DNA of 64,000 nt from Dictyostelium discoideum (taxonomy: Eukaryota): the NCBI GenBank assembly GCA_000004695.1, contig CM000155.2, positions 1,856,001-1,920,000 on the forward strand, given 5' to 3'. The translations under genes and the position numbers were made by a program. Below the pieces are notes generated by a model. That model saw only the letters and a program-made list of their open reading frames with translations. It had not been told where the DNA came from and ran no database searches. Below, one piece after another: positions 48,684 through 54,703 of the stretch (within the stretch, counting starts at the first letter, position 1; every line of letters begins with the position of its first letter).

Positions 48684-49791
48684 GAAAAAAAAAAGAAACT
48701 TCCAACATGTAGTATTAATTTATTATGTCAAGAGTTCGAAGGTAAATGTGCTAATTAGAATATTGTAATTCCTGGGTATTATCTCTTTTCAAAATCATAA
48801 AAAAAAAAAAAAAAAAAAAAAAAAATTAAAAAAAAAGAAAATTAATCAACCACCATTCTCTCTGCCTCTTATATGTAAAAAAAAAAAAACAACAACTCAA
48901 TCAATATGAAAATCAATCATTTTAAATATTGTCGTAATGAATGTTGTTTTTTAAATACTATAACACTTTTGTTTTTCACAAATTAGAATAATGTCACCTT
49001 CAAAAAAAAAGTAAGTATTTTTAATTTTTTTTTTTTTTTTTTAATAACTACGATTTACTGAAACTATAATAATTTTTAAAAATTCAAAATACCTTTTGTC
49101 ACATTAATGTTATTATATAGGCGAAGTGTGTTCTCAAACTCAAAAATAAAAAAATAAAAATCATTTCAAAGGTGTTTTTAACTATATACAGTCAATTAGT
49201 TCCTAAAACTTAGTTTCCAATAGTTTGGAATTTAAATTAAAAAATCTTTCAAAAAAAATTCTAATCAATTTTTAAATAAAAAACACTTTTAAACTGATTC
49301 ATCAAAATAATTTTTTTTCTTTTCTCTTTCTCTTTTCTCTTCTCTTTTAAAAGTATTAAAAATAATAACAGTATTAATAATAATAATAATGGTATTGCAA
49401 TAAAAAAAAAAAAAAGTTGAATATAAAAAAAGAGATATAAAATTTTTTTTTTTTTTTTTAATTTTTGGTGAAAAGCAGATAAAATCAGATTTATTTTATT
49501 TTTCTTTTCGGGCCAATATTGTAATTTGATTATTTTTTTAAAAAATTTCTTAAATTTTTACAAAATTTTTTAGAAAATTTCTTAAATTTTTAGAAATTTT
49601 TTTAAATAATATCTTGTTTGTAATTCTTTTTATAAATAATACTTTTTTTTTTTATTTTTTTTTATAAATTAAAAGAGCTCACAAATTTATTTTTCTCATT
49701 TATAATTTAACTTGGTATATAAATATTTTTTTCACATATTTTGTTTCTATTAATAATCTTATTTTTTATTTTTTATTTTTTTTTTTTGAAA

Positions 49792-50403
49792 ATGGCTAAA
49801 CCATGGTTAGATGAAGAAACCGAATATCTTAAGGAACTTTATTATCATCATTACCAAAAGAATAAAAAAGAAAAGATCAATTGTAACAAAATTACACAAT
49901 TAGTTAATGAAAGATTTGCAAATGATCGTTCACCCCAAGCAATTAAAGACAAGGCACATAGGTTAAAAATTTCCAAGAAATATGCAACTAAAACTGATAA
50001 TGATTATGATGATTATGATGATGATGATGATGATGATGATAATGATAATGATTATGATGGTAGAGATAATAATGAAGATTCTCAAAAAATAGGAAAAATT
50101 AACTTTGATGATCAAAATGTTAATGTTAAAGAAGAGATCTACCAACAACCTGTTAAAACAACAATCTCAGTATCAATCTTGGATGATAATAATAATAAAA
50201 ATAATAAAAATGAAAATTCAGTTCAAACAATAACAACAACAACAACAAAAAAACCAGAAATAGATACACCACCAATAACAAATGCAACTACAACAACAAA
50301 AAATTTAAAAAAATTAAAAAAAGATTCAATTGAAGTTGAAATTAAATATTTGAAAAAAAGGTTAGATTATTTAACAGAAAAATTGAATAATTTAGAAATT
50401 TAA
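49792..50403 (+). CDS. Myb/SANT-like domain protein, paralog B of 46913..47686 (acidic D/Y tract, C-terminal IKYLKKRLDYLTEKLNNL)
   Basis: MAKPWLDEETEYLKELYYHHYQKNKKEKINCNKITQLVNERFANDRSPQAIKDKAHRL. Same architecture and C-terminal motif as paralog A, 2.9 kb away on the same strand. Confidence 0.6.
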   Translation: MAKPWLDEETEYLKELYYHHYQKNKKEKINCNKITQLVNERFANDRSPQAIKDKAHRLKISKKYATKTDNDYDDYDDDDDDDDNDNDYDGRDNNEDSQKIGKINFDDQNVNVKEEIYQQPVKTTISVSILDDNNNKNNKNENSVQTITTTTTKKPEIDTPPITNATTTTKNLKKLKKDSIEVEIKYLKKRLDYLTEKLNNLEI

Positions 50404-50692
50404 AAATTAATCATATTAAAATATCTAAAAATAAAAATATTTGGTTTAGATATTTTTTATTTTTTATTTTTTATTTTAACATTTTTTATTTTTTAATTTT
50501 TTTTTTTTAATTTTTTTTTTATTTTTTTTTTTATTAAAACACACACCTCATAATGATTCATAGACAAAAAAAAAAAAAAACAAAAAAACAAAATTAAAAA
50601 AAAAAAAATTGTGTTTTAAAGTTCATTGTTTACATTCTTTAAAAAGAATAAAAACATACACACAATATCTCTAATAGAGATAACAACAAAAT

Positions 50693-52964
50693 ATGTTAAC
50701 TATTAAAAGATTACTTTTAAATCAAAACCTATTTAAAAGTAGTTGTAATTCCACAGGTATCATTTCAATTAATTACAATAGTAATAATAAAATTTGTTTT
50801 TTCAGTTCTTCTTCAACATTAATAAATAAAACTAATGAAATTTTAGATATTGAAGATAATAATAATAATAATAATGAAATATCATCATCACCATTATTTT
50901 TAAAAGAAACAATTAAAGAATTTAAATTAAAAAAAGAATTTATTGAAAAGTATTCAAAAAAGAAAGCACCATTTGGATTTGGAGTATTGGGTGAGATTGT
51001 ATATAGAAGAAGTTATTCGAGAGTTAAAGAGGATAATACAAATGAACAATGGTTTGAAACCGTTGAGAGAGTTGTAAATGGTACATATAATATTCAAAGG
51101 AAATGGATAGAAAGACATGGTTTAGAATGGAATCAAAATAAAGCTCAAAAATCTGCACAAGAAATGTATAATCGTATATTTGAAATGAAGTTTTTACCAC
51201 CTGGTAGAGGTTTATATTCTTGTGGTTCTTCAACTACTGAATCAAAAGGTTTATTCGCTGCTTTAAATAATTGTGCTTTCGTTAGTACATTAGATATTAA
51301 AAAGAATCCTTCAAAACCATTTATATTCTTAATGGATGCTTCAATGTTAGGTGTTGGTGTTGGGTTCGATACAAAAGGTGAAAATTCAATTATAATTAAA
51401 GGTCAATTACCACCACCACCACCACAACAACAACCACAACAACAACAACAACAACATGGTCAAAATAATAATATATTTATTGTACCAGATAGTAGAGAAG
51501 GTTGGGTAGAATCAGTTCAATTATTATTAGATTCATACTTTTTAAAAAGGAATAATCCAATATTTGATTATAGTTCAATTAGAAAAAAAGGTGAACCAAT
51601 TAAAGGATTTGGAGGAGTTTGTTGTGGTTATGAACCTTTAAAAGAATTACATGATGAAATTAGAGCTTTATTGAATAAATGTATTGGTAAACCAATTAGT
51701 TCAACAAATATTGTGGATTTAATGAATTTAATTGGAAAATGTGTTGTATCTGGTAATGTTCGACAAGCTGCAGAGATTGCATTTGGTGATCCAAATTCTC
51801 AAGAGTATATAGATTTAAAAAACTATCAAATCAATCCACAACGTGCTTCATTTGGTTGGTGTAGTAATAATAGTGTATTTGCAGAACTAGGTATGGATTA
51901 TTCAAAAGTTTGTCAAAGTATACTTCATAATGGTGAGCCTGGTTTAGCATGGTTGGATAATATGAAAGCGTATAGCAGAATGGTGCCAACCGAATTGGAT
52001 TATAAAGATCGTAGAGCAATGGGTGGCAACCCATGTTTAGAGCAAACTTTAGAATCTTATGAACTTTGCTGTCTAGTTGAAACGTTTCCCAACAATCACG
52101 AGAGTTTAGAAGACTATTTAAAAACTTTGAAATACGCATTCCTATATGCCAAAACCGTTACACTCGGTTCCACCCAATGGCCCGATACCAATAAGGTACT
52201 GCTCCGTAATAGAAGAATCGGATGCTCCATGAGTGGTATAGCACAGTTCATTCATTTCAATGGGTTGCATCAACTTAAGGATTGGTGTGTCAATGGTTTC
52301 AAGCTTTTGAATGAATTGGATGAGAAGTATTCCGAGTGGTTGGCAATACCGAAATCAATAAAGAGAACATCGATTAAACCAAGTGGCACTGTGTCGTTGT
52401 TGGCTGGTGCCACACCTGGCATGCATTATCCGATATCTGAATATTACATTAGACGTATAAGAATTCAAAAAGAGAGTAACCTAATTCCACCATTGGTAGA
52501 AGCCGGCTACCATGTTGAGCCAGCCTTTGAGAATAGTACCAATGTTGTAGTTGAAATACCCATTCATTCAGGTAAAGGTATTAGATCTGCAAATTCAATA
52601 ACAATGTGGGAACAATTATCATTAGCTTCTTTTCTTCAAAAATATTGGGCTGATAATCAAGTGAGTTGTACAGTCTCTTTTGATCCAATTAAAGAGGGTC
52701 CACAATTAAAACATGCCTTAGATTACTTTCAATATCAATTAAAAGGTGTATCATTTTTACCAAATTCTTCAACAACTACATCTGTTTATAAACAAATGCC
52801 TTATGAAGAAATTGATGAAACTCGTTACAACCAAATCATTGCTAACCTAAAACCTGTTGATTTTCAAAAGTTAAATAATTCCCCTTTAGAGCCTACTCCT
52901 GATAAATTTTGTGATTCTTCAAGTTGTACAATTGTTTCTGATAATTCTGAAACACTTAATAATT

Positions 52965-52969
<5 letters not shown>
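50693..52969 (+). CDS. rtpR: Adenosylcobalamin-dependent ribonucleoside-triphosphate reductase (class II RNR, monomeric Lactobacillus leichmannii type), single exon, 758 aa, with a presequence-like N-terminal extension
   Basis: ...FLPPGRGLYSCG...CLEQTLESYELCCLVETFPN...GCSMSGIAQF...SGTVSLLAGATPGMHYP...VSCTVSF... is collinear with RTPR. Dictyostelium is known to carry a class II RNR of bacterial origin. Confidence 0.85.
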
Positions 52970-53011
<42 letters not shown>

Positions 53012-53440
53012 TAAAAATAAAAAACTCGATAATTTCCAAAAATTATTATAATATTAGATGGAATAATAGTGATTCTTATTTTGGTAATTTACATCATCAA
53101 TTTTTTTAATTTTAATGAATTTATTTTTTTATCTTAAATAAATTTTAACTTTTATTATTAAATAATTAAGTTTTTATAAAAATTTTTATTTACATAAATC
53201 TTTAAATTATTAAATTTGATTTATATCTTATCAAATCTATTATTTATTTATTTAACTATTATTTTCATTTCTAAAAAAAAATGGATGGCGGTCCGATCAC
53301 AGTTGTAATGAAACTCTTTGGCTTTCATTACAAATTATAATATAATAATATTCAAATAAATAATTAATAATAAATAATAAATAATATTATATCTCTATAT
53401 AATATTATATGTAATAAAGTTTACTGTGTGTTCAAGGTCA

Positions 53441-53910
53441 CAAATATAAAAAAATATTGTAAGTATTTCACAGAAGTTTTTTTTTTGAATTGGATAACGC
53501 AATTATTATTTGCTTCTCCTTGAGATGCTAGATCTCATTTTATTTTATTTTTTTTTTGTTTACAGGGTCTCTAAAAGAGGGGTTGGTTTACCTTTTTTTT
53601 TTTTTTTTTTTTTTTTGTTTCGAATTTTGAATTGTATTATTACTTTTGATTAAAACATCTTTTTTGTCCAAACTTTTTTCTAAATCTTTTTTTATTTTAT
53701 CGTCTGGTTCGTGATTGATGTTTATGACGTATTTGAATTGTTTTTTTTTTAATTGAGTTTTATCCACAATTTCGCTTATTTTTTGTAGGCATTTGTGTTG
53801 CTTAATATTTATGGTGTTGTTTGTGATTTTCATCTTATTTTCTTTCTATTTTTTTTATTTTTCTTTAAAAAGTTAAAAATCTGGAAATTTTCTGATTAAC
53901 TTGGGTTCCC

Positions 53911-53970
<60 letters not shown>

Positions 53971-54340
53971 AAAAATGAAATAATCAAAAAAAGAGATTAT
54001 TTGTTTTTTTCATTTCACAGAAGTTTTTTTTTTTTTTGAATTGGATAACGCAATTATTATTTGCTTCTCCTTGAGATGCTAGATCTCATTTTATTTTTTT
54101 TTTTTTTTTTACAGGGTCTTTTTGATTAAAACATCTTTTTTGTCCAAACTTTTTTCTAAATCTTTTTTTATTTTATCGTCTGGGTCGTGATTGATGTTTA
54201 TGACGTATTTGAATTGTTTTTTTTTTAATTGAGTTTTATCCACAATTTCGCTTATTTTTTGTAGGCATTTGTGTTGCTTAATATTTGTGGGGGTGGTTGG
54301 GATTTTCCATTTATTTTCCTTCCATCCTTTTTATTTTTTG
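53441..54340 (-). mobile_element. Two truncated/rearranged TRE5-A copies. Each has the ORF1 5' end (about 170-215 bp), B-module-like sequence and a poly(T) tract, each flanked by a shared unique piece P (CACAGAAGTTTTTT..GAATTGGATAACGCAATTATTATTTGCTTCTCCTTGAGATGCTAGATCTCATTTTATTTT).
   Basis: 53621..53833 and 54121..54290 are near-identical to 55826..56038 (ORF1 N terminus MKITNNT(I/T)NIKQHKCLQK...). Poly(T) tracts at 53591..53620 and 53918..53976 mirror 56118..56166. Confidence 0.55.
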
Positions 54341-54351
54341 GAATAACCTGG

Positions 54352-54407
<56 letters not shown>

Positions 54408-54703
54408 TTATAGAAAGTACTGAGTGAATTATTGTATTTTTTGAGATGTTTAGGAAGTTCTATTGCGGGTGTTGATGATGATTTGTGACACCCCTTGTCC
54501 TGTTTTATCAATTGGTGCGTGGTGTGTTATTTTGTTTTTATATTGTTGATTTATTGAGTAAATTTTATTTGTTTTTATATTTGTTTCAGTTAGAAGTGCT
54601 GCGTCCAGCTTGTTGTTGTCTAAAACGGTGTTTATTATGCTGGCAGATTGGATGGTGTTGGATCCTTGGACGTTCCAAACACCTATTCTTATTGTGTTTT
54701 TCT

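Follow-up and report, generated by a model that had tools for sequence, protein, structure and literature searches.

How does a eukaryotic gene of foreign ancestry come to carry, within an otherwise AT-rich coding sequence, a block of about 0.6 kb that is visibly richer in G+C than its surroundings? The question is raised by an open reading frame at positions 50693..52969 of a 64,000-nucleotide stretch of the Dictyostelium discoideum genome (hereafter, the window; all features discussed below lie on its forward, +, strand). An earlier note, made from the letters alone, had taken this frame for a monomeric RTPR-type class II ribonucleotide reductase (RNR) and its G+C-rich block for a partly ameliorated relic of a horizontally acquired bacterial core, with the AT-rich parts as native extensions. 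The answer to which we incline, with confidence just short of even, is that an ancient and already known gene bears a young island produced by a local GC-biased process at the level of DNA, most likely conversion-like and unrelated to horizontal gene transfer (HGT).

The identity of the gene is straightforward. The frame (758 codons plus stop, without introns) is rtpR/nrdJ of D. discoideum AX4, its protein being an exact match to XP_629553.1 and Q54CW7, a previously published monomeric class II RNR. The curated equivalog model TIGR02505 scores 360.6 bits against a cut-off of 340.05 and aligns residues 96-747 with model positions 8-723, whereas the model of the dimeric NrdJ, TIGR02504, stays at 49 bits, far below its cut-off of 400. 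The Lactobacillus leichmannii RTPR structure (PDB 1L1L) matches residues 75-747 with E=5.8e-95, and all five catalytic/redox cysteines of that enzyme are retained. Together with the class II insertion domain, these matches confirm the enzyme class proposed in the earlier note, and the predicted activity is the adenosylcobalamin-dependent reduction of ribonucleoside triphosphates. Previous publications already cover the gene, the class to which it belongs and its foreign origin, and nothing in these respects is new. Crona et al. (2013, PMC3605638) found that D. discoideum NrdJ could be modelled on the monomeric, not the dimeric, structure, that it shares only ~33% identity with the L. leichmannii enzyme, and that the protein is undetectable in cells and the transcript low, and called its role 'enigmatic'. 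The protein is much nearer (58-63%) to a clade of ~660-residue RTPRs from phage contigs and mixed MAGs. What we add beyond Crona et al. is the island of elevated third-position G+C (GC3) and its lineage-specific origin; in a term search of PMC3605638, we found no discussion of nrdJ codon composition, of the N-terminal extension or of NrdJ localisation.

Little of the protein lies outside the shared enzyme. Only residues 1 to ~72 (50693..50908), the low-complexity Pro/Gln/Asn insert LPPPPPQQQPQQQQQQHGQNNN (residues 239-260; 51407..51472) and the last ~10 residues lack a counterpart in non-eukaryotic homologues; residues ~73-747 form the homologous core, three quarters of which is as AT3-rich as any Dictyostelium gene. 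The RNR alpha (N-terminal helical) domain (residues 79-179; 50927..51229; PF17975, E=1.1e-42) is conserved core in AT-rich codons, with GC3 of 0.10-0.20, and residues 85-238 are 0.65-0.70 identical to non-eukaryotic homologues. The insert is found only in the D. discoideum complex: outside it, 6-11 of the 22 residues align, at identities of 0.00-0.17, and even among strains the insert varies by many indels and replacements. The class II RNR insertion domain (residues 254-326; 51452..51670; PF21995, RNR-II_ins_dom, E=6.9e-14) aligns from 1L1L residue 217; in monomeric RTPRs, this domain replaces the second subunit, or dimer partner. Thus, the AT-rich coding that the earlier note ascribed to the N-terminal third and the C-terminal quarter is real, but these parts are not grafted extensions, codons ~73-420 and 617-745 being core enzyme.

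The catalytic apparatus is distributed across this core. The finger-loop motif N446-P-C448-L-E450 (52028..52042) aligns to the NPCGE loop of 1L1L and contains the thiyl-radical cysteine, C448. The redox partner C459 (52067..52069) aligns to the cysteine 11 residues downstream of that loop, and, by the same alignment, C194 and C459 make up the active-site redox pair; both are invariant, as is the finger-loop motif, in a 12-sequence alignment. So are both cysteines of the C-terminal pair C740-x4-C745 (52910..52927), which aligns to the CEGGAC tail of 1L1L; in RTPR, the C-terminal CxxxxC tail takes reducing equivalents from thioredoxin. The Dictyostelium protein thus resembles the L. leichmannii enzyme in the loop, the C194/C459 pair, the tail and the insertion domain, and differs from it by the ~72-residue N-terminal extension and the 22-residue Pro/Gln insert.

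The compositional block is equally real. Total G+C in 150-nt windows is 0.36-0.44 at ~51850-52600, against 0.27-0.32 in the coding flanks, and GC3 in 40-codon windows is 0.28-0.48 over codons ~401-620, against 0.00-0.20 over codons 1-400 and 621-758. GC1 and GC2 are flat along the gene, so that nearly all of the shift lies in the third position. In a likelihood scan, the best segment was 51953..52540 (codons 421-616), which includes both the finger loop and the second barrel half and agrees with the G+C-richer block that had been placed at about 51930..52560. GC3 is 0.37 inside this segment and 0.08 outside (0.075 and 0.098 in the two core flanks), and the log-likelihood ratio of 40.8 is the highest among the real coding frames of the window; the sliding profile is peaked, not flat. 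With Met and Trp excluded, 70 of the 188 island codons end in G or C, compared with 23.1 expected from genome-wide D. discoideum usage (z=+10.6) and 34.7 from the 1000 most expressed genes (z=+6.9), both computed from Table S3 of PMC8321536. Several codons said to be rare elsewhere are indeed confined or nearly confined to the island (GGC 4 in the island and 0 elsewhere in rtpR, CCG 2/0, GCC 4/1, CTC 2/0), but CGT, at 3/3, is not specific to it; the largest contributors are TTG (10/2), GAG (7/8) and ACC (5/1). We rejected an assembly chimera or contamination, because the block is GC3-rich in four independent assemblies, AX4 and three others of the D. discoideum clade. An overlapping antisense gene was rejected as well: the sole antisense frame of at least 60 aa over the island is a chance 102-aa frame (51831..52139) that clips its 5' edge.

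Is the island, then, what remains of the composition of a bacterial donor? Two observations favour such a relic: the eukaryotic presence of the monomeric class II RNR family has been attributed to HGT (PMC3019208, PMC3605638), and the block is rich in codons that are rare in the D. discoideum genome. We nevertheless find this origin hardly credible, because the parts that ought to be native are not. The AT-rich stretches belong to the homologous core covered by TIGR02505 and are about as RTPR-like as the block, identity to non-eukaryotic RTPRs being 0.66-0.71 in the block and 0.63-0.68 in the AT-rich 5' core.

The age of the gene weighs in the same direction. Orthologues occur in all sampled dictyostelid genera, and, in a neighbor-joining tree, Dictyostelia are monophyletic (bootstrap 90) and branch in the order of the species tree, as expected from vertical inheritance and contrary to the claim that the gene is an incompletely ameliorated newcomer. 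Spliceosomal introns have been gained in rtpR of P. violaceum and C. fasciculata. Vertical descent across Dictyostelia combined with introns in some species implies an ancient transfer, and over so long a residence any compositional relic would have been erased. Judging from these sequences, rtpR probably entered an ancestral genome well before the dictyostelids radiated and has passed down by vertical descent from then on. The gene belongs to the same family as the other eukaryotic monomeric class II RNRs, from Naegleria, Euglena, Capsaspora and stramenopiles, and our tree agrees with the conclusion of Crona et al. 2013 (PMC3605638) that an old transfer into eukaryotes was kept across Dictyostelia.

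Codon-aligned comparison of six to twelve species gave a polarity opposite to that of a fading relic. Block GC3 is 0.36-0.42 in the four assemblies of the D. discoideum clade (flanks, 0.06-0.12) and 0.17-0.21 in the sister species D. citrinum, D. firmibasis and D. dimigraforme (flanks, 0.10-0.12), where the profile is nearly flat. In D. purpureum, rtpR is flat (0.19/0.195/0.185, with 0.195 in the block), and P. violaceum, with a conserved protein, has a GC3 trough at this block. At most of the third positions where the D. discoideum clade has G or C, all four outgroups have A/T. Conversely, among synonymous third sites that are A/T in all four, the D. discoideum clade has G/C at 29% of those in the block, compared with 4.5% of those in the flanks (p=5.9e-7), an excess seen in none of the other species tested.

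The change is also directional. On the D. discoideum stem, A/T-to-G/C (W>S) changes were counted at 16 of 117 sites in the block and 5 of 280 in the flanks (p=7e-6), numbers to be read as a contrast, since parsimony over-counts W>S in AT-rich sequence and makes absolute rates unreliable, a bias that is controlled for by comparing block with flanks and by requiring unanimous outgroups. All other changes on that branch amount to 2/117 and 8/280, a difference that is not significant; in the block, the stem has 18 synonymous changes, of which 16 are W>S and 1 is S>W. The first two codon positions follow the same direction: 7 of 7 block changes there are W>S, compared with 5 of 13 flank changes (p=0.010); those of the block are N426A, I533V, K558R, I602V and two T>C changes in Leu codons. 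Most changes in the block are transitions (T>C 32, A>G 21). Further W>S gains have been made separately by AX4, by 'cf. discoideum' and by the other two strains. In amino-acid identity to the sister species, the block does not fall below the remainder of rtpR, and the ranking of block distances is the species order. The GC3 peak is derived and belongs to the D. discoideum clade, having been built by silent A/T-to-G/C changes that are directional and independent of codon position and preference.

Measured against known cases of recent transfer, to which the amelioration model applies, rtpR is alike in being a gene of foreign ancestry with a local departure from host codon usage. It differs in that no more than a quarter of the transferred core departs from that usage, in that the departure is derived and not ancestral, and in that native, vertically inherited genes of the same window have islands of the same kind. 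The atypia does not extend over the whole core, it did not start as an ancestral state and decay, and the transfer was not recent. Here, a GC3-rich stretch within a gene whose foreign origin is known had been misread as an amelioration relic, and composition alone should not serve to date or delimit transfers in Dictyostelium.

A derived block could have arrived all at once, by conversion or introgression from an unsampled source richer in GC3, either a paralogue or a near relative. The tract length of ~0.6 kb, the fairly sharp 3' edge near codon 620 and the concentration of 18 synonymous changes on a single stem branch would suit such a replacement. However, only W>S changes are in excess, and a diverged donor would have raised W<>W, S>W and amino-acid differences too; furthermore, the W>S gains continue independently within the clade. 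Searches of the window with blastn and tblastn found no second rtpR copy that might have acted as donor, the species has a single protein cluster, and high GC3 occurs in no sampled member of the complex. We therefore regard a one-off replacement as very unlikely.

Selection on synonymous sites would be a second possible cause, if a cluster of rare codons slowed translation during folding of the second barrel half and the cobalamin site. The island does overlap this barrel half and the catalytic finger loop, 57 of its 70 G/C-ending codons have a positive expression-associated preference, and the reported failure of intron GC to track GC3 genome-wide (PMC8321536) hints at coding-specific variation of GC3. 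Against this stand the absence of the peak in D. purpureum and the trough in P. violaceum despite the conserved protein, as well as the occurrence of W>S changes at replacement positions. G/C-ending codons are about as frequent at conserved (0.384) as at variable (0.355) residues, on which ground selection for translational accuracy was rejected. Expression-linked codon optimisation was rejected, too: a CAI-like index drops from 0.74 to 0.38 with the mean adaptive codon preference unchanged, among four-fold codons that end in G or C, the share ending in G is 32% where usage in highly expressed genes would give 11%, and expression of the gene is very low (PMC3605638). Nor is there excess RNA structure, a cause rejected on a folding z of -0.64 relative to shuffled sequence, with +0.57 for a control flank. 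On this evidence, we consider selection for slowed translation decidedly unlikely, and hold the same opinion of the variant in which selection favours mRNA stability or avoids AT-rich cryptic signals.

More serious is the possibility of a local mutational bias, under which a 0.6-kb stretch would have been repaired or replicated in the D. discoideum lineage with errors favouring A/T>G/C, through recurrent break repair beside the unstable, repeat-rich downstream region or through a nearby replication or transcription feature. Such a bias predicts the same pattern, a W>S excess at all codon positions that is indifferent to preference and conservation, and it fits the predominance of the transitions T>C and A>G, the break in synteny ~200 bp past the stop codon with repeats downstream, and the published lack of a genome-wide signal of GC-biased gene conversion (gBGC) (PMC8321536). 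The near-equality of third-position G and C in the island (33 versus 37) is in line with this view in showing no strand skew; for strand-asymmetric mutation, the same counts provide no support. We know of no GC-biased mutational process in D. discoideum. The mutation spectrum from rare SNPs is, on the contrary, strongly AT-biased, with an equilibrium GC of 12% (PMC8321536), and changes other than W>S are not raised on the stem, which argues against a general mutation hot spot. Overall, a mutational origin appears unlikely, although less so than selection or replacement.

A bias in fixation, of the conversion type, is the most likely cause, we infer. The course of events may have been the following. 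Once the D. discoideum clade had diverged from D. citrinum, D. firmibasis and D. dimigraforme, ~0.6 kb of rtpR (codons 421-616) would have begun to gain A/T-to-G/C substitutions at ~6-8 times the rate seen in the remainder, with other types of substitution unaccelerated. The pressure would have acted on DNA rather than on codons: it would have been blind to residue conservation, would have raised rare G-ending and C-ending codons alike while codon adaptation fell, and would have driven the few tolerated changes at positions 1 and 2. Its agent might have been gBGC or GC-biased repair at a short-lived local hot spot of recombination or repair, and the rtpR island would be one among many shifting GC3 islands of the D. 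discoideum genome. The specific form of this scenario, in which a sub-kilobase gBGC or repair hot spot was switched on in the D. discoideum lineage and left the strongest of many short-lived islands, we propose tentatively, as a possibility somewhat short of probable.

The comparison with gBGC peaks at the recombination hot spots of yeast, mammals and birds is instructive. Like these, the rtpR island is sub-kilobase and W>S-specific at all codon positions, and, together with the islands of neighbouring genes, it ignores codon preference and turns over fast between close species; W>S changes outnumber S>W changes in it whatever the codon position or preference, a mark by which gBGC is recognized. 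The decay of conversion tracts has been modelled (PMC3020949). Unlike in those systems, the link to a hot spot would have to be deduced for rtpR, and the sole dedicated D. discoideum study reported no genome-wide signal, with no correlation between GC and recombination, no link between intron GC and GC3 and, when examined in introns with the SNPs of 67 strains, no shift of the AT>GC SNP frequency spectrum (PMC8321536). These negative genome-wide tests weaken the conversion-type reading. The island, moreover, is purely coding and holds no non-coding sites by which a coding-blind process could be told from a coding-specific one. If the conversion-type reading is nonetheless true, GC-biased fixation acts locally in a genome reported to be without gBGC, silent sites have been pushed to three times the mutational equilibrium, and conservative replacements (I>V, K>R) have been driven in a catalytic core.

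The island of rtpR has weaker counterparts in vertically inherited neighbours within the window, namely, the genes for FPGS, an RBR-type E3 ligase and HIBADH. In one syntenic D. citrinum segment, islands are present where AX4 lacks them, and the reverse, a two-species comparison that is unpolarised. Clustered W>S changes private to single strains occur as well, for example at codons 301-358 in two strains. Such GC3 islands of the D. discoideum complex, which are not the same in D. discoideum as in its sister species, are not what one would expect if mutation alone leads to ~12% GC at equilibrium, nor do they fit the report that gBGC is absent.

Synteny with the other assemblies of the D. discoideum clade and with D. 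citrinum stops ~200 bp past the rtpR stop codon. The DNA downstream is rearranged and full of segmental repeats, an indirect hint only toward recombination or conversion.

There remains the N-terminal extension, the presequence-like character of which had also been pointed out and stands up to comparison. Non-eukaryotic homologues begin to align at residues 68-77, and 92 residues precede the PFGFG motif in the rtpR product, compared with 19-25 in phage and prokaryote sequences. The extension is rich in Ser, Asn and Thr, with basic residues K5, R6, K15, K33 and K46 and the first acidic residue at 49; its first 40 residues include 4 K/R and 10 S/T. All 10 eukaryotic orthologues examined have 60-177 extra residues, the first 40 holding 4-7 K/R and 0-2 D/E. 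The next in-frame Met is residue 158, within the conserved domain. By its composition, the extension is a plausible candidate for a mitochondrial presequence in all the eukaryotic orthologues examined, which suggests import into mitochondria. In animal cells, adenosylcobalamin is made in mitochondria. The retention of a presequence-like extension on a class II RNR of amoebozoans and heteroloboseans gives an idea for the 'enigmatic' role of the enzyme, which might be the supply of dNTPs inside mitochondria. A search of the literature for mitochondrial localisation of RTPR, or for RTPR in the Dictyostelium mitochondrial proteome, returned nothing relevant. The maximum hydrophobic moment of the extension (0.39, 11-residue window) is modest and unremarkable among the N-termini of the window, and those of FPGS and HIBADH are of the same style.

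In D. discoideum AX4, the strain from which the window comes, the intronless 758-codon ORF at 50693..52969 (+) is an already known gene, rtpR (nrdJ); its product matches XP_629553.1 exactly, recorded in UniProt as Q54CW7 ('ribonucleoside triphosphate reductase'). Its identification from the sequence as a monomeric class II ribonucleotide reductase (RNR) of the RTPR type is borne out by a match to the RTPR equivalog TIGR02505 over residues 96-747 (360.6 bits; curated cut-off, 340), by an RNR alpha domain with the class II insertion domain, and by an alignment with 1L1L, the Lactobacillus leichmannii enzyme, that covers residues 75-747 and shows conservation of the radical loop (N446-P-C448-x-E450), of both redox cysteines (C194, C459) and of the cysteine pair C740-x4-C745 at the C terminus. 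This gene has been studied previously (Crona et al. 2013, PMC3605638): its transcript is low, the protein undetectable and the function 'enigmatic', and nrdJ phylogeny implies transfer from bacteria to eukaryotes, followed by eukaryote-to-eukaryote transfer (see also PMC3019208). No second copy was found within the window.

The GC-rich block in the center of rtpR, which the earlier note had placed at about 51930..52560, is real, has not been described before, and is a modest curiosity of codon-composition evolution. The G+C content increases to 0.36-0.44 between ~51850 and 52600, and the increase is confined to third codon positions: the GC3 profile is far from flat, at 0.28-0.48 in codons ~401-620 versus 0.00-0.20 elsewhere in the gene, with GC1 and GC2 flat. 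A likelihood scan delimits the best segment at nt 51953..52540 (codons 421-616; GC3 0.37 vs 0.08), with an LLR of 40.8, the highest among the genuine coding ORFs in the window; an assembly artefact is ruled out, since three further D. discoideum-clade assemblies have the same block. The block contains 70 codons ending in G or C, whereas the codon frequencies tabulated for D. discoideum in PMC8321536 (Table S3) predict 23 from the genome average (z=10.6) and 35 from the 1000 most expressed genes (z=6.9). Of the codons named as rare outside the block, GGC, CCG, GCC and CTC are indeed confined to it, but CGT is not.

The block had been interpreted as the partly ameliorated core of a horizontally acquired gene, with the AT-rich N-terminal third and C-terminal quarter grafted on as native extensions. 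On this main point, the interpretation is wrong. The AT-rich parts are mostly core: identity to non-eukaryotic homologues of ~660 residues is 0.59-0.70 for residues 85-238 and 261-420 and 0.55-0.68 for residues 617-700, similar to the block (0.66-0.71), so that lineage-specific sequence is limited to residues 1 to ~72, a Pro/Gln insert (239-260) and a few residues at the C-terminal end. Furthermore, rtpR is old in the dictyostelid lineage, given that orthologues are present in every sampled dictyostelid genus as well as in Balamuthia, Naegleria and Willaertia, that a neighbor-joining (NJ) tree of RTPRs recovers Dictyostelia as a single clade (bootstrap 90) branching much like the species tree, and that the P. 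violaceum and C. fasciculata genes contain introns. This age contradicts the view of the block as a donor relic, as does the restriction of the GC3 peak to one lineage.

That the peak is lineage-specific is evident from comparison across dictyostelids. In the four D. discoideum-clade sequences, GC3 is 0.36-0.42 in the block and 0.06-0.12 in the flanks; the respective values are 0.17-0.21 and about 0.10 in D. citrinum, D. firmibasis and D. dimigraforme, and 0.195 and 0.19 in D. purpureum. P. violaceum has a trough at the same block (0.03-0.13 at AX4 codons ~434-594 and 0.10 in the block, vs 0.24-0.30 elsewhere), and C. fasciculata has one at a different place (0.05-0.18 at AX4 codons ~250-350). 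Both genes with such troughs contain introns.

Among synonymous third positions with A or T in all four outgroups, the D. discoideum clade has G or C in 29% of those in the block and in 4.5% of those in the flanks (p=5.9e-7), a contrast not matched by any of the other species compared. Parsimony assigns to the D. discoideum stem 16 changes from A/T to G/C (W>S), 1 S>W and 1 W>W among the 117 block sites, and 5, 2 and 6, respectively, among the 280 flank sites, that is, a ~8-fold higher W>S rate in the block (p=7e-6), with no elevation of other types of change. Replacement of the block from a diverged donor is argued against by this exclusive elevation of W>S, by unchanged amino-acid identity to sister species, and by block distances that rank in species order. 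Further W>S gains occurred separately in AX4, 'cf. discoideum' and two other strains; for example, two strains alone have a series of A>G changes at codons 301-358. Because the changes at codon positions 1 and 2 of the block are likewise all W>S (7/7, comprising N426A, I533V, K558R, I602V and two T>C in Leu codons, vs 5/13 in the flanks, p=0.010), the pressure appears to act on DNA.

Selection acting on silent sites is a less likely cause. G/C-ending codons are about as frequent at conserved (0.384) as at variable (0.355) residues, a CAI-like index drops from 0.74 to 0.38 in the block with mean adaptive preference unchanged, avoided G-ending codons account for 32% of G/C-ending four-fold codons where highly expressed genes predict 11%, and the block shows no excess of RNA structure (folding z=-0.64). 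Codon optimisation, in particular, is rejected on these codon data and on the weak expression of the gene. Third positions of the block show no G/C skew (33 G vs 37 C).

What the data require is a regional process at the DNA level, biased toward W>S, that switches on and off between close lineages. We favour GC-biased gene conversion (gBGC) or GC-biased repair at a transient hot spot, which would account for the tract size, the peak-shaped profile, the directionality without a general rate increase, and the rapid turnover. The main evidence against gBGC is that five published genome-wide tests in D. discoideum found none, with a mutational equilibrium GC of ~12% (PMC8321536); an earlier analysis at the chromosome level gave a nominally positive result (PMC5635611). 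The same pattern of substitutions would also arise from a local mutational process biased toward GC, and allele frequencies would tell the two apart.

The DNA directly downstream of rtpR is rich in repeats: 300-nt copies at 53626, 54102 (80%) and 55831 (95%), 81-nt copies at 53477 and 54028 (99%), and a 199-bp tandem array at 56142..56839, all within 53477..56839. The ORFs 53588..53833 (-) and 54707..56038 (-) differ at one of their first 45 residues. Synteny between assemblies stops ~200 bp past the stop codon, with alignment to the three other D. discoideum-clade assemblies and D. citrinum failing from ~53193 (L001, L002, L004, L006 and L007 examined); retrotransposon genes follow in L004 (D. 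dimigraforme) and L006, and unrelated genes in L007 and L002. The repeats and the loss of synteny are compatible with a recombination-prone neighbourhood but prove nothing. Across AX4 48693..53190, the divergence of L006 and L007, two assemblies that carry the name D. discoideum, from AX4 is 2-6% in rtpR and, as far as the alignment extends, about 4-13% in flanking non-coding DNA, which is high for conspecific strains.

The rtpR island is the strongest in the window, and weaker ones with the same codon mix (TTG, GAG, ATC, TTC, GCC, GGC) occur in folylpolyglutamate synthase (FPGS; 16858..17328 (+), GC3 0.29 vs 0.07), an RBR-type E3 ligase (37089..37919 (-), 0.24 vs 0.08) and 3-hydroxyisobutyrate dehydrogenase (HIBADH; 35542..35841 (-), 0.34 vs 0.10). 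In the one 22-kb syntenic D. citrinum segment compared with AX4, FPGS shows a weaker island, shared only in part, and the orthologue of ORF 21948..26147 carries islands of its own (0.24-0.28 vs 0.03-0.14 in AX4). Sub-kilobase GC3 islands that shift between species thus belong to these genomes in general and not to transferred genes. In ORF 4019..5926, a long poly-Asn tract at 4376..4729 (-) is encoded almost entirely by AAC (77 codons, GC3 0.80), unlike nearby runs, which use AAT, the codon for 90% of Asn genome-wide; it looks like an (AAC)n microsatellite inside coding sequence.

The closest non-eukaryotic relatives of the enzyme are 58-63% identical across residues about 70-750, are binned to taxonomically incoherent metagenome-assembled genomes (DPANN archaea, Pelagibacter, Flavobacteriales, Rickettsiales), and are found on >560 predicted viral contigs (IMG/VR). 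On one such contig, L097, the gene lies in a phage replication module, among those for a DnaB-like helicase, an exonuclease and a DNA polymerase. Ordinary bacterial RTPRs are ~45% identical and fall outside the clade with bootstrap 100 (NJ tree), so 'phage-associated type' may be a better label than the earlier 'bacterial-type', and phage-borne enzymes may be the nearest relatives of the eukaryotic clade. It has been observed previously that phage class II RNRs lie close to those of chloroviruses and microalgae (PMC6775973).

Biologically, the possible presequence of the rtpR product is the more useful lead. Ahead of the conserved PFGFG motif, all 10 eukaryotic orthologues examined have 60-177 residues, compared to 19-25 in non-eukaryotic sequences; the first 40 include 4-7 K/R, 0-2 D/E and 7-13 S/T, and the AX4 protein has no acidic residue before position 49. 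Translation must include the extension, because the next in-frame Met, residue 158, already lies within the conserved domain. Among the ORFs of the window, N-termini of this long, acid-free, basic kind are present in FPGS and HIBADH, which are mitochondrial enzymes in other eukaryotes, and in the unassigned ORF 42647..43522. Taken together, these observations make a mitochondrial location of the rtpR product plausible. Such a location would fit the mitochondrial synthesis of adenosylcobalamin in animal cells. The hydrophobic moment of the N-terminus is unremarkable, and our literature search found no localisation report for RTPR. Another candidate for organelle targeting, judging from its sequence, is the 292-aa product of that ORF, 42647..43522 (-), which has only a sub-threshold match to Sec62 and an acid-free, basic, Ser/Asn-rich N-terminus of 83 residues.
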